Shown piece by piece: positions 33,377 to 57,240 of a stretch of DNA of 64,000 nucleotides (the first letter of the stretch is position 1; each line of letters begins with the position of its first letter). The notes beneath the pieces were generated by a model. It had not been told where the DNA came from, did not search any database, and saw only the letters and a program-made list of their open reading frames with translations. Position numbers and translations under genes: made by a program. Source of the DNA: a virus (Duplodnaviria; Caudoviricetes); IMG/VR virus record IMGVR_UViG_2892966740_000006, positions 1-64,000 of that record; one strand, given 5' to 3'.

Positions 33377-34568
33377 TTATTTCCTCAGTCCTACTAGTTG
33401 TTTCACTTTGGCCAGTTCGGCCCGGTTCTTTTGCAGCCACTCCGGCGTCATCGCCACTTCATCGGCTGCCCGCCAAAATCTTTTTCGTGACGGCGGCGAT
33501 GGCGGTTTATCCGGTGGCGGCTCCGGTACCGGGGTGTCTGGTGGGCTAGGCTCGGGCTGTGGTGGCGCTGGGGCGGTGGCGACCACCGGTGTGGCAGAGG
33601 CCGCCAGCTCGTCCAGATAGTCATCCCACACAATGCGCCGGGCCTTCTTCCGGTCCATGCCCATGCCAACCAGACGCTCAACCTCTTCGGCCAACCTTGC
33701 CTTGGTCATGTCATCCAGCTCGCTGGCCTGCGTCATGCCAGCAACTCCCGTTGCGGCATGACTGGCTGTAACCGGTGCAAAAACTGGTACAGCTGATCGG
33801 TTTCATCCGGGCTAAGTACCGTCGTGCTGCCGTTCGTCAGGTCCAGATAAAGCCACCCGGCTTGATCCAACAGGCAGTTAAACGGCACGTCTTCTTTGGG
33901 CTTGGATGGCGACGGTTCTACCGGTTTCTTGCCCGACACATGCGAGGGGAATAGCACCTTGAAGCGTTCAGGTGCGCTCTCAAACAGCTCTACAGTGCCG
34001 TCATCACCAATGGAGCCAATCAACGGAATCGGGCTGCAGTCTGGAGCGCTCATGTCATCGTTTACGTTCCCATTCCCGGCTACTTCGGTATCCGTGTTGG
34101 AGTCGGCATGACGGGCCTGCTTGCTTTCCTTGGCGACGGACTGATCGGTATTGGAGACCCAATACCAGTGGCCATTGTCATGGCGTTTGACCTGATCCTT
34201 TTTGCGGTAGAACTGCAGGGCGGTGTTGACTGCTGCCGGTGAGCCGACCACTTGATCAACCAGTTGGGCCGATGTCATCCCGGTTTTGCCTACTCCCATC
34301 AATATCCGCTTAACCGGGCAGGAACGTTCTGCTTGTCATTCGGCTTGGCCTCCGCGACCACGTGCTTTCCGGGTCCGAACTGCCAGATCAGTTCGTTACC
34401 GACATCACGGCGGTTGACCTTGTTTTGGCTCTCAAGCTGCAACAGTGCTGACGTCAGTTCCATCACGCTATGCCCCAGCTGTTGTGCGAGTTCTTTGGTC
34501 GAGCGGCCATGTTTGTGTTCGGACAAGGCAGCCAGCACCTGCTGTTCAAGCACTTTTGCGTTCTCCAT
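33377..34568 (-). CDS. three early hypothetical/wHTH ORFs (33377..33736, 33733..34302, 34299..34568)
   Basis: Tightly coupled ORFs in the semi-essential region. Confidence 0.55.
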
Positions 34569-34569
34569 G

Positions 34570-34962
34570 TCACTGCACCTCAACGCAGGCGGGTTTGCCG
34601 GTCAGCATCGTGTTGACTCCAACCGAGGTCTCGACCAGATCCGTCGCCACCTTCCCGACGTTGACCATCAACTCACGGCAACGGTTAGCCATATCCAGCA
34701 ACTCCTTGGCATCCAGTTCCTTCAGCAGAATGGCGCGGATCACGTCGGCGTTTTCCGGGGTGATGAGGGTGATATCAATGCCCAGCTCGTGGCGAAGGCG
34801 TACCATCTCATCGACCTGTGCCGGGGCTTTGCGGCCGCTTTCATAGCGGGAGCCGCCGGACTGGGTGACTTTGACCGCACTCCAGAAATCTGATTGATTC
34901 AGGCCAAGGGCACGGCGCATGGCGCGGTAGTCACGTTTTACGGTTTGTTCTTGCATGGTCAT
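34570..34962 (-). CDS. XRE-type HTH protein
   Basis: RRALGLNQSDFW..V.VTQSGGSRYESGR. Confidence 0.8.
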   Translation of the reverse strand: MTMQEQTVKRDYRAMRRALGLNQSDFWSAVKVTQSGGSRYESGRKAPAQVDEMVRLRHELGIDITLITPENADVIRAILLKELDAKELLDMANRCRELMVNVGKVATDLVETSVGVNTMLTGKPACVEVQ

Positions 34963-34969
34963 CTCCTGA

Positions 34970-36220
34970 TTAATTTCCGATTTCTGTCCAAACGATGCGG
35001 CAACCGCCCAGCTGGAACTGTCCTTCGCGGTACTGGCCCACACGCTCACGCTTGCCAAAACTGAAGTACACCGCTTCGCCCTTGGCGATCAGGGTGTGGC
35101 ACTGGCCACTGGTCTGAATGCGAATGGTCGGACGGGATACGCTCTTCAACTCCACATCGGTGACCGTGAAGCCGTTCTCGCTCAACGCTTCAATGGCGCG
35201 GGCCGCTTTATGCGTGGCATCCAGCAACGCCGCATTAACCTGCCGGGTTGAATGGGTACGTAAATGGGTCGTGCTCATTAACATGGTCAGTCTCCTTTGC
35301 AGCAGTTTTTGCACTGTCGGCAGGCTCGCCAGTGGCTGAGTTTTAACGGGTGGTGAGTGGGGGCGCGGCTACTGCTGAAAGCCCGGCAATCGGCCATCGT
35401 CATGTCAGCGCCATTGAATGGGCAGATCACACGGGCCAGTACCGCGAGCACTTTTTTCTCAACGGCGTCGGTTTTGCCAGCATATTTCCCGGCCAGTACC
35501 AGGGCTGACCGTAGAGCGCGAGTAGCCCAGCGCGTCGGCCACCGGTTTCTGCCCGCGTTCGGCCACCGCTTCCCGCAGGATTTCCAGCCAGTCAGCAGTC
35601 ATGATCAGGCTCCTCTTGCCAGACCACTTTCCCCAGATTCGGGTCATAGACCGTCTTGGTGCGCTGGATCATCGGTGGGCGCGGGCCGGAGTTGCGGGCC
35701 GGGTTGAAGCGATAGCGGGTGGGGATGCCACCGGCGCCCTTGCCATGGCCCTTGGTCACGGTAATCAGATAACCCGCTGCTGACAGGTGCTTGACGTATG
35801 CCTTGGCGGTTTCGGTCGCGACGGTGACTTCGGAAGAACTGGATAGCGCGGCCAGCTCATGAAACGTGAAGTCACGGATCATCCGCATGGTTCGCCACAT
35901 CGATTCATTCGCCAGCCCTTGGGTGACCGGCTTGCCATCACGGGTCAGGCGAGGCGCTTCGATTCCCTTATCCACAGCCAGCTTCCAGCGCTTCTCGGTA
36001 TGACCAGATGCCTCCTGAATGACCTCAATGATTCCGGCCTTGGTCAGCGACCGCAGATAGGTCTTCGCCGTATCGATATCGGTATCGGCTTTGGCGGCCA
36101 CGTCGATGACCGTGAAGTCGTCACGTTTTTTACGGATAGCCTCCCAAAGTCTCTGACGCCCCCCTTACCCCCCACCAGTTCAAGGTGAGCCGCGCGACGC
36201 GGATTTAGTGGTGCCCCCAT
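34970..36220 (-). CDS. three conserved Mu-like early ORFs after B (34970..35284, HTH 35287..35602, wHTH 35592..36220)
   Basis: GCRIVW, LGYSRSTVS..LAGKY and NSGPRPPMIQRTK.VYDPN motifs. Confidence 0.65.
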
Positions 36221-36946: not shown

Positions 36947-39073
36947 CTATCGACGACTCAAGGTCTTGTATTCGTTGGTGTGGGTGTATTTGTTCAGTAC
37001 CCAATCCAGTTCACGCTCGCTGAGGCATTCGCCCCGTCCATGGCGATCACGTAGCGTGCAGAAATAGCGGTAACGGGCCTCCGGGCTGTCCGGGATGGAC
37101 AGCACATTGCTCGGCAAGACGGTTTCAACGGGTACGGTCGGCGGTACCACCTGCAAGGTGGGTTTGTCGGTCAGAGGCTCGACCGGTTTTTCCGCGTGTT
37201 CGGCCCGAACCTTGGCAGCGGCTTCGGCCAACTGCTCACGGGTACCAAACACCACGCCGGGGATAACGATTTCCTTTTGGGCCTCAATGGTAAACTGGCC
37301 ACGGCGTTCGGCTTCCACTTCTTCCAGATGCGCTTGCAGGCGGTCAGCGCGGGCATCGGCGCGTTTCTCTCGGGCACGCTCAATGACAGAAACCGGGAAG
37401 TAACTGCGGACATTCGCATTCCATTCGGCCGTGCAAATTAGCCTGCCATCGTCGGCATAAACCCATACCGGCTGGCGTCATTCACGTCATAGCCAATGCG
37501 CAGCTGTTCACCGTGAAATTCCTCCAGCTCACGGCTGAAATAGCGGTTGCCATACAGTTGTATTTCGCCCCGGCGAATAACCCGTTCGACTTGCGGCCGA
37601 AACAGATAGGCGTCTTCACCCGGCTTCAACGTATGAGGTTCCCAGCCAAGAGCAATAAACTCGGCCAGTTTCATATCCGGGCTAATGCCATTCAGGCTGG
37701 AATGAGGACGGGCGTTGTAATCCGCGATGCGCTGATTAATGAATTCGATAAATTGCGGCCAACTGATCAAATTAACGGTGCCACCGGTTTTGACGGCTTT
37801 ACGGGTAATCTTGAATTGAGCCAGTTTGGCTTCACGGTCCATATCAACGCCGATATAGCTTTGCAACTCGCGGGCGGCACGAACAAATACCGACTGGTGC
37901 AAACGTTCCACGGCGCCTTTGGCCTGCGAGTTATACGGTTTGGCAAAGTGCATTTCCGCACCTAGCCGTCCCATAATCCCGGTCGATTCATTTCGCAGCA
38001 GGTCGTTTTTGTAACCAGAGCCGTTATCGACATAAAAGATCGCCATAACGCCTTCACGCGTTACCGCATGGGTAATGGCATCCAGTACGGCTAGTGATGA
38101 TTCCGCCAGCCCGACACTCCATCCCACGATACGGCGGGTGGCCACATCGATAATGGCGGTGATTTCCGGGCGAAAAGGCTTACCATGGAACGGATGTTGA
38201 ACCTCGGCATCAAAGGTGTGCCCATCAGCGGTCCAGACGTCGTTCGGCAGCAGATCAGAGATATCGCGGCGGACGAACGGCTTGATATTCTTCATCTCAC
38301 GCGGGCCGATCCGACCGGTTTGGCGGCTGACGTTCCCCAGCTTGCCAATGAAGCGGCGCACCTGATGGATCGAGGGTAGATCCTCCGGGCTTCCGGCCCA
38401 CTCTCGTCTGAACTGCTCATAGGAATGCGTCACGTTCGGTTTGCTGGGCAACTGCCAGAGTCGCAGGAAGGCGGCGGCCCATTCCGGCACATCCAGTAAC
38501 GCCGTCATGGCGGTTTTAGGCGCCAGATGGCCTTCTTTTTCCAAGGCACGCCAGCCTTTGATGGTACGAATGGAGGGATAGGGACCATTCAAGCCCTTGC
38601 GGCCACGTCCGTCATGGGCAGCGCGGAGCATCATGTCCAGATGCGGGTCCAGCATCCCGGCCTTGGCCTGCGTTAAAAGCGTGTGAATCGCCGCCTCACG
38701 GCTCACGCCACACCCCGCCATCAAACGCTCAATGGCCACCAAGACCCCCTTGCGGGCACCTTCTACCGTCTGCTGACGGCTGGTCAGCGCCAATTCCAGC
38801 TGCTGTTCCTTGGTTTTAACGGCGGGCAGTGCCACGACCGGGGCAGAAACCAGCTTCGTAACCAAGCGATCCTTAATTGCCTTGATTGCTTCATCCGGCA
38901 GGCTGGTGAGGGCGTATTCGTACCCGCCACCGCGCCCTTGGCGTTTTTTTGATTCCCATAGTTCGGTTTTTGCCCGGATTCCAATTCCTTGGATGGTTCC
39001 GGTGCAGCCCCGGCAGCTTCAGGTCAGCCAACTCGGCGGCGCTGTAATGGGTTTTAAGTTCGGTCTGGCTCAT
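36947..39073 (-). CDS. MuA-like DDE transposase (three fragments)
   Basis: HYSAAELA.L.LPG N-terminus; WTADGHTFD, YVDNGSGY and AKGAVER motifs. Confidence 0.92.
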
Positions 39074-41565: not shown

Positions 41566-41630
41566 ATCCCGCATCATCCCGGCTCATCCCACAGACTATC
41601 CCCCTGTGCAATTCACCTCACCACACCACA
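41566..41630. repeat. Mu-like left end with periodic ATCCC repeats
   Basis: ATCCC at 41566, 41576, 41586 and 41598; terminal CA at 41630. Confidence 0.6.
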
Positions 41631-42618
41631 CTTGCTCAAGAAGGTCTGTCGCGCCTTTCGCTCGCAAGTCATGAAAGTGAAATCGGCGATTTCCCGCCGC
41701 CTCCCGTGCTCGCATTATTTTCTGCACCAGAGCATTGAATCCGCTGTCGGTGTATGGTTTGCCAGTCCTGCTTGAAACGAATAAATACCTAGATCCGGAT
41801 GGTCTAGGGAGCTTTTTCGCTTCAGCTACAGCTGCCATTAACTTTGGCGCCCACCCTATCAGTACGGTAACGGGTCGGCTGTTCCTGGTTTTTAGCTGAC
41901 GAACTAAAAGCCCGTCGTCGCTTATTGCATCAAGCGACAGGCGCAATACGTCTTGCCTACGCTGTGCCGCAAGATAGGCGATTTCGAGGGCTGATGCGAC
42001 GACCTTCCCTGTGCGCAATGTATTGCCATAGTCCTTGTTTGTCGCCTTTCTGACACCATCCTCACGTTCAGTAAGCATTCCGTGCCTTAGCTCACGAGCA
42101 AAGCTGATGAATCTATCGAGTTCATCATCATCGACGTATCTGTCGCGGGGCAACTCTTTGTTGCGCGTTACCCCTCGGCATGGGTTGCTTTCCACGATCC
42201 CCCAGCGCATTGCCATTGTAAAAACATGGGAGAGAAGCGCTTTCTCTCGATTTCCGGCCACTGCGGCGCCCTTTCCTGCCCTATAGTCGAGATATTGGGC
42301 AACGTGAACTGGCTTTATTTCATCAGGCCTAAAATCACCAAATGCTGCTTCAAGCAGCTTCATCTGCCGCTCTTGGTCCATTCGCGTCTTTGCCGCCTTG
42401 GTTGGTAACACCTCGACTGCATAACGGTTGAAAACAGCAGCCATCCCCTGTGAAGGCATCCGGCATGGTGCTTCCAGTTCTACCCACCGTCTTTTTGCCT
42501 CCCCCAGATCAGCAGATAGTCGAATCCATTTGTTTGCTTTGGTGACGTAGTAGTACGCGCCATTTTTTCGGTACATACGCGGAGGAAGGTCGCGATTTTT
42601 TAGACGGGGTCTTGCCAT
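41631..42618 (-). pseudogene. int: tyrosine integrase interrupted by the Mu-like prophage
   Basis: AAQRRQDVL and FHFHDLRAK motifs; the GH...Y motif is at 208..310. Confidence 0.95.
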
Positions 42619-46634: not shown

Positions 46635-47115
46635 TCACATCACCAGCACGCTGAAGCGCGATTGCAGGCCGATTGGGGAGAACGGGATGTCGTCATCAAG
46701 ATCGTCCATCTTCTTCGGCGCTGGATCTGGCTGACGTCGAGGCGGCGCAGCCGGGGCGCTGTGCTGCTCACCTGCCCCATCACGCCCACCCAACATTTGC
46801 ATACGGTCGCCGCGAATCTCCGTGCTGTAACGGTCCTGGCCGGTTTCTTTGTCCTGCCATTTGCGCGTACGGATCGAACCTTCCACGTACACTTGCGAGC
46901 CTTTTTTCAGGTATTGGGCTGCAACTTCGGCTGTTTTGCCAAAGAACACGACACGGTGCCATTCGGTCAGCTCTTCACGCTGGCCGGTTTGCTTGTTGTT
47001 GTACGTGTCGGTGGTGGCCACGGACAGTGTGGCAATGGCGTCGCCTAAGCATGTAACGCGTTTCAGGATCGCGGCCAAGGTTGCCGACGAGGATCACTTT
47101 GTTGACTGATGCCAT
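46635..47115 (-). CDS. ssb: single-stranded DNA-binding protein
   Basis: [25 protein letters not shown] and DDDIPF; break near 47045. Confidence 0.92.
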
Positions 47116-47764
47116 CAGGCTGCTTCCTTTTCGTCATCCGGTATTGCCTGCAAAAAACAGGCTTTTAAGTTTTCGTAAGCCGTTTGTAATCGTTGCTTTT
47201 CGCTTTCCCCACAACGCTTCCAAGCTCCGCCAAAAATCCCTTGCAGGCTTGCAAGGTCAGCACATCCTTGCATTGCCTCGATCGCCATATCGACTTCTTC
47301 GGCCTGCATGGCCGCGTTATCTTTTTCCTCTTTTTCAGCAAACTCTTTCTTCAAAGAGGTTACGTACTTGTTGTCATCGAATAGCCCCATGAACACATCA
47401 GCACTAAACCCAATGTGAGAAAGCCCCTTTGTCAGCGCGTCAGTTGTCGCCTTCTTAGCCGCATCGTCATCAAGCTTTCCTTTGGCGTTAAGAATTTCGG
47501 CAAGGCCGCGCCGGGACCAAAACAGTTACTGCGATCGCCATGCCATACAATCACATCAGCAGCAGCAAGAACGATGCTTCCTGCTGTGACAGTTGAATGC
47601 TCTACTGTGTATCCCCATCCCTGCCCCACAGGCCCGAATGTTTCCGTTGCCCGCATCACTTGGTAGTGCGCATCGATGGCGGTGAATTTACGGCCAAGAC
47701 TTACATCTTTTGTGTGTCTTGGGTCTGTCTTGCTTACTTTGTTCCAAAGGTCCATGTTTGACAT
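47115..47764 (-). CDS. putative ssDNA-annealing recombinase (two fragments)
   Basis: ATETFGPVGQGWG and DAAKKATTDALTKGLS.IGFSADVFMG; adjacent to ssb. Confidence 0.65.
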
Positions 47765-47948: not shown

Positions 47949-48464
47949 TCAGCGCCAAGTTATGGCGCACCTCGATGTGCGCACCGGTATTTGCTGGCCG
48001 TCTTTCAGCAGCTTCTTGACGTCAGCTTTGCGCACGGCCCAGCTGGCTGGGACGTACTCTTTTGCCGTGTTCGGGATAAGGCTTTCGTCGTCGATGATGA
48101 CGGCCTCGCTCTTGCGTAGCCCCATGGCGATTTCGCTATCCTTTGGCGTGATGGCGCGCTCCAGCATCACCTTGACGGCCAGTGACGCCAGATTGTCTTT
48201 GCCTCCTTCTAGCGCCTTCTTGCGGGCTTGCAGTGACTTGATGCGCTCGTCCAAAGCTGCCGCCTCGGCCTCTTTGTTCTTGATCACCTTGGCGTAGTTG
48301 AGCAGCTTGGTTTCAATGTCCCCAGACTCGCCTTCCAGTGTGTCCAGATAGATTTGCTTTGCTTGCTCCTCTGTCAGCTTCCCTTCTGCTACATCAGCAG
48401 CAAGACTGGCCGACAGGCTGGCTTCCATCTCAGCAAAGGCTCTGTTCAGTTCAAAAAGGTTCAT
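47949..48464 (-). CDS. siphovirus Gp157-like protein
   Basis: DTLE..SG..E.K, KN..AEA and V.I.DESLIP motifs. Confidence 0.75.
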   Translation of the reverse strand: MNLFELNRAFAEMEASLSASLAADVAEGKLTEEQAKQIYLDTLEGESGDIETKLLNYAKVIKNKEAEAAALDERIKSLQARKKALEGGKDNLASLAVKVMLERAITPKDSEIAMGLRKSEAVIIDDESLIPNTAKEYVPASWAVRKADVKKLLKDGQQIPVRTSRCAITWR

Positions 48465-49290: not shown

Positions 49291-49777
49291 CGCCGCACCT
49301 CATGCACAGGAAGGCCGTTGCGGCCGAAGTAGCGAAAGCGCAAGCGCAGCCCTTGCTCGCGGAGTTGGCTGGCCATTTCATCCGTCACCCAGCCGATGAT
49401 TTCGGTAAGAGTCATGGTGTATTCCCCAAAAAAGAACCCCGCACATGGCGGGGCTAGGTTCAATCACAAGGGAAAGCCGGTGAGGCTTCTGGCCGTCCGG
49501 GTTTACGTAGACCGAGGAGATGGATAGTGACCAGTCGCCTCAACGGTTTCCCCTCAAAAAGATGGGCGACCCGAAAGCCGCCCCAAGTCAACGCTCGTTA
49601 CAAAGGAGAGTCGATGGTTACCCATCATCAAGCGCACTCCGGCTACTGGACTGTGGCGTCCCACTGGTCGCTTGCTCACGAAATGTGCTTGAGGATGGGG
49701 GCTGGCCTTTAACCTCGCCAGCGCGGAGGCCGTGGTAAACTCAATTTCCACATGTCATCAACCACGGAGATGCCTTT

Positions 49778-49912
49778 ATGCAAAAATTTTCCGATAACAC
49801 ACGCGGGCACGTTCCGCGTACCCCTCCTCCGCCCCCTCCTAACTCTTCGGGATTTGCGAAGGATCATGCGCCGAGAATGCCGCCACCACCGCCGCCACCG
49901 GCAAAAAAGTGA
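49778..49912 (+). CDS. 44-aa polyproline repeat peptide (not in the ORF track)
   Basis: RBS GGAG; MQKFSDNTRGHVPRTPPPPPPNSSGFAKDHAPRMPPPPPPPAKK*. Confidence 0.7.
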   Translation: MQKFSDNTRGHVPRTPPPPPPNSSGFAKDHAPRMPPPPPPPAKK

Positions 49913-49920
49913 GGTAGTAA

Positions 49921-50399
49921 ATGGATCGTCACGAAGTTGAATTCCAGCTTGATTACTCAATCATCATTGAGGAAATGCAGCTAATCCTTATGGGAAGAGC
50001 TGATCGATTCCTGACGTTTTTCCAGTTTTTACTGGGGAGTGCGGCAGCTGGTGATATTTTTTCAATCAAGTTTATTGGTTTTGTTGTGGCGATCTGTGCT
50101 GCATTGCAGTTTGTTTACCAACCAGCTTCAAAAGCGATGGAGGCCAAAATCCAGCGCGATCGATATTTGTTACTGAAAAAACAATCGGTAGAGATGAGCA
50201 CTGAGCAATTGGATTTAGCATTAAAGGATGTCTTGCCTATTGATTCAATTATCCCTAATGCGCTCTGCCATCCTGCTTGGCTGGCTACCTGCTTACAACA
50301 GGGAAGGCCAATTGAAGATCATGTAAAAAAGATGACATGGATGGAGTCTTTCCTTTCCGGCTTGCAAGCAGGAGACCCGTTCTGGATAGAACCTCATAA
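49921..50399 (+). CDS. two-TM membrane protein (SLATT-like layout)
   Basis: Helix-TM-TM-helix; probable true end ..LAGRRPVLDRTS* at 50399. Confidence 0.65.
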
Positions 50400-51048
50400 C
50401 TCTATTGCGTTAATCAGTGGTGGAGCTCCCGGAAGGGCTTCCGGTACTGTTTTCTCTCCTCCGCACATGACGACCGAGAGCGGGTCGTTGAAGTCTATCC
50501 GCCTGATGGCGGCCAGCGGTGCGGTACGCTGGTCATCGCAAACCAACACAGCTGCACGCTCCCACACTGAAATACAGACAAATACAAGGAAGAAAAACGG
50601 AGCGTGCATGTGTGTTGGTGCTGCATCCCGCCATTCCGTGCAGCGGCTGTCACTATTTCCCGGCCCTTACAGGTCGGTGCCGTGGCGAGTCGGCGTTGGG
50701 TTATGCTGGTCTTTAAAGACGCCAGCGCGGTCTCATCGGCAGTTAAGTCCGCCGCTCGCCTTGGTGCTCAGTTGGCGCATCCAGCTTCGCGGCTTTTTCG
50801 TAGAGCCGCATCATTCTGCGCATCAGTTTTTTGTAGTAATCGTCTTGGTGGTACTTGCAGACGTCACCCGGATAAATCATGAAACCGTTTTCGTACTCAG
50901 GGTGGCTGCACTCGCACTTCCCGCGAAGCTTCGATTTGATCTCTGCTTTGCACGCAGACTCAAAGCTAAACCATCGTCGCCCACCGCCGCGCCAAACAAC
51001 GGCTACTTCTTTTCTTGGCAGCATGTTGGCCTCCTCGTTAAACATCAA
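50394..51048 (-). CDS. first pL-operon ORFs (50394..50609, 50743..51048)
   Basis: RBS GAGGAGG before MLPRKE; follow the pL leader hairpins. Confidence 0.45.
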
Positions 51049-51537: not shown

Positions 51538-52098
51538 TCAATCTTGCAGTTTAACTAACTTGCCGTTTCGGTATCGGTATAAGACCCCGTAGCCTTGCGT
51601 TCCAATGGGAATAAAAACTTCACCGGACCGGAAAAAGACCTTGTCTTGCCCGGTATCTGACATTAGACGAACCCATTTACCATTACGAAGGGAAAATACT
51701 TCAACTACCGATTTAAAGTGCTCGGTATCGCAATGCACAACAGCTACTTGTTTTTTTCCGTCCGTTCCAAGTGAAATCTGGGCCACTTCAATTTGAGAAC
51801 CATGAATGCTCTCTAAGTTATCCAAGCTTACCGGAAGTGCTTTTATTGGCAATTGGTAAGCAACGTTTGCGCCATCTCTTGCTGTGAAATAACCGATTTC
51901 ACCACGGGCGCGCGGAATTATATCGACGTCATACAAATCGCCATCTTGCTTGAATTTTATCTTCAGTTCTTTAAATGTTCCATCACGGTCAAGTTTAGTA
52001 ATCTTGGTGGGGACACTGGGATCAATGCAGCGAGGAGCAGCAGCGGCTATCGTAGAGGCCACGGAAAGAGTGATAGCTGCGATATGAAGTAATTTCAT
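51538..52098 (-). CDS. moron: secreted protein
   Basis: Signal peptide; AT-rich. Confidence 0.7.
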   Translation of the reverse strand: MKLLHIAAITLSVASTIAAAAPRCIDPSVPTKITKLDRDGTFKELKIKFKQDGDLYDVDIIPRARGEIGYFTARDGANVAYQLPIKALPVSLDNLESIHGSQIEVAQISLGTDGKKQVAVVHCDTEHFKSVVEVFSLRNGKWVRLMSDTGQDKVFFRSGEVFIPIGTQGYGVLYRYRNGKLVKLQD

Positions 52099-52939: not shown

Positions 52940-53791
52940 TTACTTCATATACTTAGCAATAACATCATGTTTTACTTTAAAATAAGAAAACCCAGACTTT
53001 AGCGTGATGCAACATTCATCACCACCCACATGTAAATCTGCAATTTTGTATCTACCCTCCGGAATATATCCATGATCCGCGCCATTATAAAATGGTTCAT
53101 GCATCACCATATCTTTAGGTATCTCAACAAACCCTTTATCGATCCATCTATCGTACAGCCATGTAAAGTCTGCAAAAATCCTATTATTTGGTGGATTTGT
53201 TATATTTCTTCGCTGGATTATGAACGGTTCAGAAATATCATAAACGCCAATTAGTATGCTTCTCAAGCTGCTCTTCATTAGCATCTCATCCAAGTCACCG
53301 TTTTTAATTCCGATAGCAATAAATTCCAAATAATTAAGTATATAGCGTACGGCTGCGACTTTCTCTTTATCATTAGTGTCTTCGCTAGCAATTAGCTCCA
53401 GTGACATCTTTCTTGTTTTACCGGATGCAGTCATGAAGCATTTATTAAGCATTTCAACATTTTCCATATACTTTGCTGACAATCTAGTCTGTAGCAATGT
53501 ATTTATAGTATGTTGCTTAATTGAATTTCTAATAGTAACCATGGAGCTTGTAATCCAACCTGCGACCGCCGCATATGCCGCAGTTAGAGTTACCCATGAC
53601 TGTGCATTAAACTCTGATGAAGTAAGTGGAAATGTCTTTGGAAGTAAAAAGTGCCAAGCAGCAAAAATAAAATACGCACATGAGACAAAAATAAGCAAAA
53701 GACCCAGCGCTCGGCTGGGTCTTGTGAAAGTCTTTACAGTATTGAAGTTAATCAATTTATACAGCCTTTGCTCCGAGGCCTTCACCTTCAT
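52940..53791 (-). CDS. moron: DUF4760-like membrane protein (start uncertain)
   Basis: Two TM segments; KQHTINTLL and YILNYLEFIAIGIKNGDLDE. Confidence 0.7.
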   Translation of the reverse strand: MKVKASEQRLYKLINFNTVKTFTRPSRALGLLLIFVSCAYFIFAAWHFLLPKTFPLTSSEFNAQSWVTLTAAYAAVAGWITSSMVTIRNSIKQHTINTLLQTRLSAKYMENVEMLNKCFMTASGKTRKMSLELIASEDTNDKEKVAAVRYILNYLEFIAIGIKNGDLDEMLMKSSLRSILIGVYDISEPFIIQRRNITNPPNNRIFADFTWLYDRWIDKGFVEIPKDMVMHEPFYNGADHGYIPEGRYKIADLHVGGDECCITLKSGFSYFKVKHDVIAKYMK

Positions 53792-54695: not shown

Positions 54696-55398
54696 CTAGA
54701 TATTGAAGCTAACGGATACCACCAACCCAACGACATGCAGCGTATCCGGATCATCTGGCTTAGCGTTGATTTCCCGGTAGAGCTTTTCATTGTCCGAGTG
54801 AATTGTCACCGAACCATCCATCTGCTTATAAAGCCGTTTCACGTAGCATTCGTTGCCCCGGCAGATAACGTGGACCTTCCCATTCGCTATCTCCTGTTGC
54901 CGGTGAACAATCAGGCTTGCCCCGTTCGGTATGGTCGGCTCCATAGAATCGCCCGACGCAACAATACTGAACAGGCTTTCTTTCTTGTAGCCGTGACGCT
55001 TCGCCCAGAGCCGTTCGGCAATAGTTAGGGTCGCCCTTGGTATCAACCTCAAGGATGGGCGTTCCATGGCCAGCTGACGCCTTGAGCGTGTAGCGAGGAA
55101 CGGAAATTACGGCATCGCCAGCTTCATCTTCCGCGTCCAGCAACACAACAGGCCGCATTGGCGTGTTGACTGGCAAGCCGAGGTCAATGACCTCCTTCTG
55201 GCCTTCTCCAGTTTTCAGCCACTCAGGATTTACCCCAAGCACCTTAGATAGCTCCAAGGTGAAACGCGACTCGCCGGATCTGTTCTCGATGTTACCGATC
55301 GTGGAGGCATGTTTCGCCCCGATTGCCTTGGCAAGCCCAGCTTGAGTAAGCCCTAGCTCCTCGCGCCGCTCCCTAACTCTATCGCCGTATGTCTTCAT
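54696..55398 (-). CDS. cI: CI-like repressor (HTH plus S24), one frameshift error
   Basis: RREELGLTQ.GLA, ASAGHG, GDSMEPTI and YVKRL; leaderless (TACGAT 7 nt upstream). Confidence 0.9.
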
Positions 55399-55400
55399 GA

Positions 55401-55474
55401 ACACAATCGTATCTGCAAGTTCTATCACATGCGTGTCAATATCCTTGCCTTCAAATACACAATCGTGTTTAATC
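55401..55474. promoter_or_regulatory. oR/pR/pRM
   Basis: Three ACACA-N3-GTGT-like operators (55401, 55425, 55457); TTGCCT-17bp-TTTAAT. Confidence 0.7.
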
Positions 55475-55480
55475 TGTGTC

Positions 55481-55675
55481 ATGGACTGGATCAACGTTAT
55501 CTCCTCTCTCAAGGCAGCAGGACTCTCGCTTGAAGAAATAGCTAAAGAGGTCGACTGCTCTGTTTCTCTACTTCGGGCGCTATCTCGTAAAGCGCGAGGA
55601 AAGCGGCTCTCTTACGACGTCGGTCGGAAGCTTGAGTATCTGTATGAGAAATACCGACAGCCTGACGCTGCCTAA
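55481..55675 (+). CDS. cro: Cro-like protein
   Basis: Divergent small HTH, GLSLEEIAKEV.CS.S. Confidence 0.8.
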   Translation: MDWINVISSLKAAGLSLEEIAKEVDCSVSLLRALSRKARGKRLSYDVGRKLEYLYEKYRQPDAA

Positions 55676-56203: not shown

Positions 56204-56395
56204 ATGGCCGAATCATTCAACATAGACAAGCACAGCCGCCGTGTTTATTGGCTATGCAAGCGCATGGAGTCAGCCCGGAACCGTGGGCGTATTACTCGTG
56301 CCCGTGCGTGCTGCCTAGCCTTGCAGCGCGAGATTGACCGCCGCCCAGCGTGGTTTATCGCGCAGCTTGAGCAAGACAGGGGGCTGGCATCATGA
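56204..56395 (+). CDS. hypothetical protein
   Basis: RBS GAGG; coupled to O. Confidence 0.5.
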   Translation: MAESFNIDKHSRRVYWLCKRMESARNRGRITRARACCLALQREIDRRPAWFIAQLEQDRGLAS

Positions 56396-57240
56396 GCGCC
56401 GCAGAGAAGATCATCAGCCTGGCAGAGCGCCGTGCAGCCATTGCCCCGGTCGAAGGGAAGAAGCGCATGCAGGACGGTTTCACCGCTATTCCGAATGACG
56501 TGGAGGACGCACTGCTTCGCTCCCCGCTGACGCATCGCCAAGAGCGTGTATTCCGCGCCATCCTGCGCAAGACGCTTGGCTTCAACAAGACCGAAGATTG
56601 CATTGCCACCACACAGATTTCAGAGCTAACTGGAATTGATGAATCCCCGGTTCGCAAGTGCGTCAATGATCTGGTTGACATGGGATTGGTTGCACGGGGT
56701 CGACGCACAAAATTTGGGACGTTCATCACCCCAAATCTTGATGTTTCATCATGGAATTTCAAACAGGACGAATCGTCCCGTTTACCGTCCCAAACAGGAC
56801 AAATCGTCCCGAATAAACAGTACGATTTAGCCCCCCACAAAAGACAATTACAAAAGACAGTTAAAGAACCTAACGGTTCTTCGTCCTCGGCCAAGCCGAA
56901 GACCGACAAAATCGCCTGCCCACATGCACAGCTGATCGACCTGTATCACGAAGAGCTTCCTACCTGCCGACAAGTCCGTGAGTGGAACGATGCTCGCAAG
57001 AGCCTCATGCGTGCCCGCTGGAACGAGAAGCTGGCAGCTGGCAAGTATCACGACTTGCAGACTGGACTTGCCTACTGGCGCCGGTTCTTTGCCTACGTCA
57101 ACCAATCCGACTTCCTGACCGGCCGCTCAGAACCGGGCAATGGCCGCAAGGTGTTTGTTGCTGACCTTGAGTGGATCATCCGTCCGACCAACTTCGCCAA
57201 GATCGTTGAGGGCAAGTATCACGAGGAGGCTGGCGAATGA
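56392..57240 (+). CDS. replication initiator O-like protein
   Basis: DGFTAIPN, R.F.AILRKTLGFNK and NFAKIVEGKY motifs. Confidence 0.85.
   Translation: MSAAEKIISLAERRAAIAPVEGKKRMQDGFTAIPNDVEDALLRSPLTHRQERVFRAILRKTLGFNKTEDCIATTQISELTGIDESPVRKCVNDLVDMGLVARGRRTKFGTFITPNLDVSSWNFKQDESSRLPSQTGQIVPNKQYDLAPHKRQLQKTVKEPNGSSSSAKPKTDKIACPHAQLIDLYHEELPTCRQVREWNDARKSLMRARWNEKLAAGKYHDLQTGLAYWRRFFAYVNQSDFLTGRSEPGNGRKVFVADLEWIIRPTNFAKIVEGKYHEEAGE
56761..56870 (+). repeat. replication origin iterons plus A-rich tract
   Basis: AAACAGGAC(G/A)AATCGTCCCG at 56761 and 56792; degenerate copy at 56815. Confidence 0.75.

Follow-up and report, generated by a model that had tools for sequence, protein, structure and literature searches.

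In lambda and P22, the prophage gene sieB lies antisense inside the leftward early operon and encodes a small protein with a hydrophobic N-terminal part and a cytoplasmic C-terminal part. SieB serves in the exclusion of other phages; the protein that modulates it, Esc, is made in frame from an internal part of sieB. Insects and mammals produce proline-rich antimicrobial peptides whose targets are the exit tunnel of the ribosome or DnaK. Proteins of the SLATT group are predicted pore-forming effectors of conflict systems (preprint 10.64898/2026.04.29.721553), and where defence systems contain transmembrane proteins, these are viewed as suicide effectors (PMC9122126). Short polyproline upstream or leader open reading frames (ORFs) tie expression to elongation factor P (EF-P) (PMC5021804), the general principle of polyproline- and EF-P-dependent expression being treated in PMC4176338. 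Morons are independent transcription units added to a phage genome (PMC3594210). Here we describe a two-gene cassette located in the first 64,000 nucleotides of the virus record IMGVR_UViG_2892966740_000006 (Duplodnaviria; Caudoviricetes), a stretch hereafter called the window. The cassette encodes a proline-rich micropeptide of 44 amino acids coupled to a protein predicted to form a membrane hairpin, and represents a family of phage morons that is conserved, has mostly escaped annotation and is unusual in having a micropeptide as partner.

The micropeptide is built of two HxPRxP-polyproline units, GHVPRT-P6 and DHAPRM-P7. Both had been reported, with their mixed proline codons, in an initial annotation made from the sequence of the window, and both were verified: the first run reads CCT CCT CCG CCC CCT CCT and the second CCG CCA CCA CCG CCG CCA CCG. 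The peptide contains 15 prolines (14 of them in the last 30 residues), 7 lysines or arginines and 2 acidic residues, and is devoid of any hydrophobic segment. The same annotation had placed its stop codon over the ribosome binding site of the next gene, and this overlap is indeed present (Table 1), the ATG of the membrane-protein gene lying 8 nucleotides past the stop. Searches of Pfam, PHROGs, PADLOC, NCBIfam and PDB with the micropeptide returned no match, and an Rfam scan gave chance matches below threshold and nothing else. Two candidate identities were considered and rejected. An ermC-type hairpin switch was dropped since the predicted mRNA fold of 49745-49960 is no more stable than that of shuffled sequences (z -0.65), and a Rz1-type spanin was discarded since the peptide carries neither a signal sequence nor a lipobox cysteine.

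Table 1. Positions in the window of the cassette, its parts and the prophage genes that surround it
Feature	Position	Strand	Evidence or remark
Whole cassette (moron), 732 nucleotides	49701..50432	+	Present or absent as a unit; cassette-less contig, GC contrast
Inverted repeat GCTGGC-N10-GCCAGC	49701..49722	+	Left cassette edge, about 10 nucleotides upstream of the -10 element
Extended -10-like promoter element TGGTAAACT	49733..49741	+	Sequence and conservation in homologues
Leader TGTCATCAACCACGGAGA with Shine-Dalgarno GGAG (49766-69)	49753..49770	+	8 nucleotides before the micropeptide ATG
Proline-rich micropeptide gene, 44 amino acids	49778..49912	+	ORF translation, homologous loci, codon pattern; peptide MQKFSDNTRGHVPRTPPPPPPNSSGFAKDHAPRMPPPPPPPAKK
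Coupling junction: micropeptide stop TGA (49910-12) over Shine-Dalgarno GAGG (49911-14) of the membrane-protein gene	49910..49914	+	
Two-helix-hairpin membrane-protein gene (PHROG 6315)	49921..50413 (inferred end)	+	Frame, PHROG profile, hydropathy, public contigs
Terminator-like hairpin CCGGAAGGGCTTCCGG (50429-44), then T-rich tail	50429..50454	+	Right cassette edge
Integrase	41596-42618	-	
SSB	46635-47078	-	
Sipho_Gp157	47949-48464	-	
Helix-turn-helix (HTH) repressor	54826-55512	-	
Replication protein O	56392-57240	+	Phage_rep_O

The evidence for the pair comes principally from its recurrence. Nineteen distinct loci encoding the membrane protein were compared, the window included; duplicates (L005 and the Fels-2-type E. 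coli copies) and L016, from an unpublished genome, were left out. A strict test was applied, which requires a short frame on the same strand with at least 6 prolines in its last 30 residues and ending at most 20 nucleotides from the start of the membrane-protein gene. Such a frame exists in 15 of the 19 loci (the window, L003, L004, L007, L008, L009, L010, L011 which is Fels-2, L012 which is EKP1, L014, L015, L018, L027, L031 and L032), so that the objection anticipated by the initial annotation, homologues lacking the peptide, does not apply. The window has 14 prolines in this region, L003 and L004 have 10 each and the other twelve have 6 to 11 (those of L031 and L032 counted by eye). As a control, the 3944 ORFs of at least 150 amino acids in the genome to which the window belongs were treated in the same way: an upstream frame with at least 6 prolines precedes 112 of them (2.8%), one with at least 8 precedes 0.56% and one with at least 10 only 3 (0.08%), while the single case with 14 is presumably this gene itself. 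The ORF is therefore real, well beyond chance. As to the remaining loci, L006 has a proline-rich frame that overlaps the start of the membrane-protein gene, L017 (Yersinia phage) has a weakly proline-rich relative of the Fels-2 peptide (..FHILHKPAPPEEKK..), L028 has a proline-poor peptide whose N-terminal part is common with that of EKP1, and L029 (Arsenophonus nasoniae paPv10) has a Fels-2-like peptide broken by an in-frame TGA.

The geometry of the junction is also maintained. The gap between the micropeptide stop and the start of the membrane-protein gene ranges from -4 to 16 nucleotides across the 19 loci, and in 11 of them the stop codon is part of an AGG/GGA-type Shine-Dalgarno (SD) sequence (TGAGG, TAGGA, TAAGGAG and similar). 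Most loci moreover present a canonical SD before the micropeptide ATG. The peptides are characterized by a recurring motif: histidine or an aromatic residue, then V, I or A, then P-[RP]-x-P followed by proline or Ala-Pro repeats. Fels-2 has one copy of it, the window, L003, L004 and L031 have two each, and L032 has three. The N-terminal copy, HVPR[TS]P, is conserved as strongly as the C-terminal one and is located more than 30 residues from the stop. Together with the control, these observations uphold the proposal that the peptide and the two-helix protein are conserved as a translationally coupled pair, and the pair is kept together across temperate phages from several bacterial orders.

Codon usage leads in the same direction. 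The Fels-2 and E. coli CI5 peptide genes are separated by 9 synonymous and 5 non-synonymous differences (omega 0.10), their core FHVLPRPAPAP showing 6 synonymous codon changes and no replacement; omega for the corresponding membrane proteins is 0.04. Read in the other two frames, the same peptide region accumulates many replacements, with stops in one of them. In an alignment of the peptides of the window, L003 and L004, 18 residues do not vary, 16 of which are encoded by at least two synonymous codons. This synonymous variation shows that selection bears on the amino acid sequence of the micropeptide, and both genes are under purifying selection. The initial reading of the ORF as coding is supported.

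Annotation pipelines have largely overlooked the micropeptide. PGAP leaves it unannotated in the RefSeq E. coli records, and two phage records carry it as a hypothetical protein. In L011 (Fels-2, NC_010463, 2836-3435) and L017 (Yersinia phage, OM046624, 2376-2965) the pair is unannotated and an ORF of the opposite strand is called (STM2733.1 and vBYenM4218_008, respectively), probably on the wrong strand. The copy of E. coli GPEC60-12-649 (L026, 1552-2100) is a mosaic in which the peptide gene is identical to that of Fels-2 and the membrane-protein gene is of the E. coli CI5 type, so that recombination has taken place between the two genes.

The membrane protein belongs to phrog_6315, a family listed with unknown function (E 5.4e-20, residues 2-137 on profile positions 3-138 of 152); the proteins of L003 and L004 match the same family at E 4e-24 and 1e-23. 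Nothing was found for it in Pfam, PADLOC or NCBIfam, and no family of PADLOC-DB 2.0.0 was matched by the micropeptide or by three family members (E up to 1). Averaged over the family, hydropathy peaks twice, at residues 33-41 and again at 53-62, with a short dip in between (45-49), and a basic stretch follows the second transmembrane helix (TM2). This indicates a two-helix membrane hairpin with both ends probably cytoplasmic. Fused peptide-membrane forms were considered among the N-terminally extended members and were not convincing.

An exhaustive profile search of a library of representatives collected 248 clusters at E<=1e-3 and 110 at E<=1e-10. Their members typically measure 150-180 amino acids (120-200 in 137 of 150 among the matches listed) and all are called hypothetical protein in their source, bar one evident misnomer. 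The family is sparse: with the window's own genome included, a match occurs in 3 of 68 sampled genomes of the same family, 6 of 401 of the same order and 4 of 401 of the same class. Named phages with a member are Fels-2, Elizabethkingia phage EKP1, Yersinia phage vB_YenM_42.18 and Providencia phage PSTNGR2lys. Copies are also present in 40 of 5426 complete E. coli genomes, in a Salmonella replicon, in Arsenophonus phage-plasmids and in two IMG/VR contigs, and a profile scan of genome contigs had its sole match in a Chromobacterium piscinae contig. Several searches were empty: a word-indexed protein search with the 160-amino-acid protein and a megablast of the region against phages gave no match, the family alignment had no confirmed match among metagenome contigs nor the profile any among viral contigs, two alignments offered no segment of sufficient conservation for a search of related loci, and PDB sequence searches with the family profile gave nothing meaningful. 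No account of the pair was found in the full-text literature, supplementary tables of defence screens lying outside that search.

The two genes travel as a discrete cassette. One public contig (run X14) joins position 49700 to 50433, with 40 other letters replacing the 732 nucleotides, and GC content inside the cassette is 0.42 compared to 0.56-0.59 in the flanks. The left breakpoint (49700/49701) is the start of the inverted repeat, close to where nucleotide similarity to the L003 and L004 loci begins (around 49699), and the right breakpoint (50432/50433) falls inside the terminator-like hairpin. The inverted repeat, a putative operator or boundary hairpin, is found identically in L004, and L003, Fels-2, E. 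coli, the Yersinia phage and L029 have similar GC-rich repeats ahead of their -10. Located between operon genes, extending from a promoter-like to a terminator-like element, and present or absent among relatives, the cassette does not differ in kind from described morons, a term which names the packaging and not the function. Just downstream in the direction of the early operon, two or three terminator-like hairpins occur at 49435-49590 (-), which antisense early transcripts crossing the cassette would meet.

The extended -10 element recognized by the initial annotation is present and kept in homologues: the aligned elements are TGGCAGAAT in L003 and TGATAGAAT in L004, with TGGTAGACT in Fels-2, E. 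coli and L010, and TGGTATTTT and TGGTATCAT in L017 and L029. A GC-rich inverted repeat followed by GTGGTA.A.T precedes the Fels-2, E. coli, Yersinia-phage and Arsenophonus copies. From this conservation we infer promoter activity; a simple sigma-70 -35/-10 scan, however, did not detect the element (0 promoters found, 0.9 expected). The 18-nucleotide leader is identical in the window and L003 and has one mismatch in L004, a near-identity that is maintained though the proteins of these three loci share just 41-56% identity.

The genes surrounding the cassette (Table 1) are those of a lambdoid prophage. The pair is carried by the plus strand inside the leftward, minus-strand early operon between the integrase and the HTH repressor, which agrees with the antisense placement first reported, and the host genome encodes EF-P. 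Antisense orientation to both neighbours is shared by the copies of Fels-2, E. coli CI5 and GPEC60, Yersinia phage vB_YenM_42.18, EKP1 and Arsenophonus paPv10. The Yersinia phage copy resides in a P2-like early operon, and that of EKP1 between antiterminator and holin, on the strand opposite the lysis genes. In Providencia phage PSTNGR2lys the pair is on the strand opposite the surrounding early genes, and in the IMG/VR locus L031 it adjoins HNH and small-terminase genes of the other strand. Since placement differs in this way among phages, the unit is mobile between phage backbones and insertion sites. The micropeptide gene is the only constant neighbour of the membrane-protein gene, the others being phage early, lysis or packaging genes.

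The end of the membrane-protein gene required revision. The initial annotation closed it at 50399. However, the frame opened at 49921 does not read the TAA at 50397-99 as a stop and continues in the window to 51165 (414 amino acids). Homologues end at 158 and 171 amino acids, most of the relatives listed have the 120-200 amino acids mentioned above, GC rises from 0.42 before to 0.56-0.59 after about 50350, and the tail of the long frame crosses a phage gene of the minus strand (50743-51048, phrog_21496, E 2e-12). For these reasons the tail looks non-genic. Public metagenome contigs from runs X1 and X2 carry an additional T after 50358 and lack 8 nucleotides at 50396, and otherwise match the window letter for letter over 50043-50481 and 50327-50551; the two runs may derive from the source sample of the genome itself and do not constitute independent support. 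In this form the TAA at 50411-13 comes into frame and yields a protein of 161 amino acids ending in ...MESFLSWLASRRPVLDRTSLR, whose S-W-L-A...P ending resembles the S-W-F-A-G-x-x-P ending of the family better than the frame of the window does. With the extra T alone the stop would be the TAA at 50397-99, the end originally given. The differences are either an assembly indel or strain heterogeneity.

A second gene of the window is interrupted in a comparable manner. At 47115-47764 (-), two ORFs share between them a phage exonuclease whose profile, phrog_7838, has 242 positions; ORF 47432-47764 covers positions 4-74 and ORF 47115-47396 covers 143-232. The split reflects either a frameshift or an indel of assembly, and in this it resembles the stop lost from the membrane-protein gene. 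With a second gene split, and with a source genome scored as 80.6% complete in 3 contigs, indel errors around the membrane-protein gene are plausible.

SLATT proteins (SLATT_1/DUF4231 and the SLATT_5 of DRT10) resemble the membrane protein in length, about 160 amino acids, and in a two-helix membrane hairpin, which the hydropathy profile of the family reproduces and which is probably flanked by helices here as well. However, the SLATT Pfam gathering score is reached by 0 of 109 family members. Under the threshold, two of the 109 match SLATT_4 (best E 0.041) and two match SLATT_fungal (best E 0.077), and a single protein, that of L016 from the unpublished genome, matches SLATT_1 (E 0.021, 15.3 bits against a cut-off of 26.3). 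Aligned by hhalign, the family reaches 53% with 6 true SLATT_1 proteins (E 1.4e-4, 61 columns) and 67% with 17 true SLATT_1/DUF4231 proteins (E 5e-5, 58 columns), in both cases over TM1-TM2 and their edges only. The SLATT-type assignment made initially therefore does not hold at the Pfam threshold, the hhalign likeness being confined to the hairpin. The partners differ as well. The micropeptide is the sole partner here: no nucleotide-generating, SMODS, SLOG, TIR, reverse transcriptase (RT) or other signal-generating gene stands beside the family loci examined, and none of the 6 true SLATT_1 loci examined has a coupled proline-rich ORF of this kind. The family may work like a SLATT effector; these values do not establish membership.

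The resemblance to SieB is one of position and general architecture. The lambda gene (34482-35036, +) is antisense between N and ral, its record naming the product "SieB superinfection exclusion", and like the present cassette it is a prophage gene placed antisense inside the leftward early operon that encodes a small protein with a hydrophobic N-terminal and a cytoplasmic C-terminal part. Esc, however, arises from within sieB, whereas the micropeptide is encoded by a separate upstream gene, and no proline-rich ORF precedes sieB in lambda. With EF-P-dependent upstream ORFs the cassette shares a short ORF, PPP runs near the stop, tight coupling to the next gene and EF-P in the host. It differs from them by conservation beyond the stall motif, repeated motifs, the lack of PPP in 5 of 19 loci and the lack of a supporting mRNA structure. 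Runs of at least three consecutive prolines exist in 14 of the 19 loci, the window included (P6 and P7); with the run missing from the other 5, a polyproline stall of the kind suggested by the initial annotation cannot operate throughout the family. Pro-Pro is wholly absent from the Fels-2/E. coli type, and one Arsenophonus variant has lost its prolines. Finally, the micropeptide resembles proline-rich antimicrobial peptides in composition only (short, basic, rich in proline and arginine, with histidine or an aromatic residue and an aliphatic one before P-R or P-x-P); it differs in being made inside the cell by a prophage, and the PDB search with it was empty.

The reading that we favour, with a rough probability of 0.45, is that of a self-contained coupled moron whose peptide partners the membrane protein in phage-phage conflict, by exclusion or abortive infection. 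By analogy with lambda sieB, the cassette would be transcribed from its own promoter in the lysogen, and convergent early transcription would silence it upon induction. Ribosomes finishing the micropeptide would re-initiate on the membrane-protein gene, so that the membrane protein would be made only with the micropeptide and at a rate set by its translation. The P6 and P7 runs might slow translation and throttle this hand-over, hence a possible dependence on EF-P in this host. The released micropeptide, with its one to three H-x-P-[RP]-x-P(P)n motifs, could form a polyproline-II rod and stay as a partner, inhibitor or gate, of the membrane protein. The pair would act by superinfection exclusion or abortive infection through membrane permeabilisation. 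Such an action would resemble that of SieB or of SLATT-type effectors, a likeness in action that implies membership in neither. A role of the released micropeptide in trans is favoured because the N-terminal motif is equally conserved, the motifs are repeated, the Fels-2 type is strongly constrained without any Pro-Pro and a proline-poor variant keeps another part of the peptide. That the pair is functional is supported by conservation, coupling geometry and selection. The exclusion or suicide-effector role of the membrane protein is, for its part, deduced by analogy, and the label of a peptide-gated defence effector used in the initial annotation remains to that extent interpretive, PADLOC having no entry for it.

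Several observations weigh against this scenario. PADLOC, Pfam and NCBIfam are all empty for the pair, the similarity to SLATT stays below every threshold and is limited to the hydrophobic hairpin, and lambda SieB is unrelated by sequence (hhalign 0.4%, no Pfam SieB match). The promoter scan was negative, and the proline run is absent from the 5 loci mentioned above. With its stop lost, the membrane-protein gene of the window may represent an inactive or mis-assembled copy. The pair of Arsenophonus paNv_UK9 has the orientation of the holin and lysozyme genes and lies directly upstream of them, a position that fits a lysis role too. In L029 (A. nasoniae paPv10, around 1876-1965) a TGA interrupts the peptide ORF after 10 codons. 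In this same locus the HKPAP...DKK part past the TGA and the membrane-protein gene are both still open, the interruption representing either recent decay or read-through.

A rather unlikely alternative is that the short ORF is a cis-acting leader only, whose proline-slowed or EF-P-dependent translation, or arrest at the stop, sets expression of the membrane protein while the free peptide has no function. A stop that forms part of the SD, as in 11 of 19 loci, and a gap of -4 to 16 nucleotides would suit such a device, as would the 14 of 19 loci in which at least 3 consecutive prolines fall about 25 codons or fewer from the stop, the presence of EF-P in the host and the existence of EF-P-tied polyproline leader ORFs (PMC5021804). 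The frequent C-terminal KK, encoded by A-rich codons beside the SD, may likewise reflect a constraint on nucleotides. However, HVPR[TS]P is as conserved as the rest although it would be outside the exit tunnel, or at its far end, at termination; the motifs occur in two or three copies in some phages; even without any Pro-Pro, the Fels-2/E. coli type shows an omega of 0.10; the proline-poor variant retains the conserved N-terminal part; and there is no significant mRNA structure to remodel. It is unlikely, too, that the cassette is an addiction or maintenance module, or one of lysogenic conversion, in which the membrane protein would poison the host or modify its physiology and the peptide would serve as labile antidote. 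Its layout, a small upstream gene coupled to a larger downstream one, recalls toxin-antitoxin pairs, it is a moron moving among unrelated phage backbones and phage-plasmids, and PADLOC has no match; but neither gene resembles a known toxin or antitoxin family in Pfam, PADLOC or NCBIfam, and the placement mirrors that of exclusion genes such as sieB. A little less probable again is a new type of translation-surveillance module for abortive infection in which the micropeptide is the short-lived gate of a SLATT-like pore. The polyproline peptide, similar to a proline-rich antimicrobial peptide, would be hard to translate and would need EF-P, the pore would be made only by ribosomes fresh from completing the micropeptide, and the repeated HxPRxP motifs would be determinants of binding to the pore (or to the ribosome or a chaperone). 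A superinfecting phage that shuts down or retools host translation would then deprive the cell of the peptide first, the pre-made pore would open and the cell would die.

The last two explanations have still less in their favour. That the membrane protein is a holin- or antiholin-like component of lysis timing with a proline-rich accessory peptide appears very improbable. The two-TM hairpin with charge flanks of the N-in/C-in kind would be compatible with it, as would the adjacency to lysis genes in EKP1 and the arrangement of paNv_UK9. Most records, however, place the pair far from lysis genes, antisense in the early operon; the EKP1 pair is on the strand opposite the lysis genes of a phage that has its own annotated holin and Rz; the micropeptide lacks the attributes of a Rz1-type spanin; and no lysis-category PHROG is matched. 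Finally, it is scarcely credible that the short ORF is open by chance in GC-rich DNA or as a side effect of an opposite-strand gene. The ORF is unannotated in the RefSeq E. coli records, Fels-2 and the Yersinia phage are annotated with an opposite-strand ORF, and no RNA run figures among the public sequencing runs listed for the stretch. Yet the ORF recurs in 15 or 16 of the 19 loci against 2.8% in the control, a canonical SD precedes its ATG in most of them, the pattern of synonymous changes fits this frame only and two phage records annotate it. The chance-frame explanation is already contradicted by the control, omega and codon variation.

If it functions as proposed for the coupled conflict moron, the pair would add to prophage conflict genes a widespread, compact and almost wholly unannotated two-gene module, found in Fels-2, in the 40 E. 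coli genomes, in P2-like and lambdoid phages and in phage-plasmids. It would, in addition, provide one of the rare conserved polyproline micropeptides to which a partner can be assigned. The pair makes it testable how a micropeptide controls a membrane effector, be it by translational coupling, EF-P dependence or binding. As pipelines miss the micropeptide and sometimes call the wrong strand, it provides an example of hidden coding content in the early operons of temperate phages.

Other genes of the window deserve mention. A gene at 52940-53791 (-), located between the repressor and the early genes, has a GC of 0.36-0.39 and encodes a DUF4760 protein (E 3e-33; phrog_2284); it looks like another moron. 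An ORF of 186 amino acids at 51538-52098 (-), with a GC of 0.42-0.46, has a signal-peptide-like N-terminus (MKLLHIAAITLSVASTIAAAAP...), and searches of Pfam, PHROGs and NCBIfam with it were empty. Immediately beyond the prophage integrase, the ORF at 37438-38865 (-) combines rve integrase core and Mu transposase C-terminal domains, which suggests a second mobile element adjoining the prophage.

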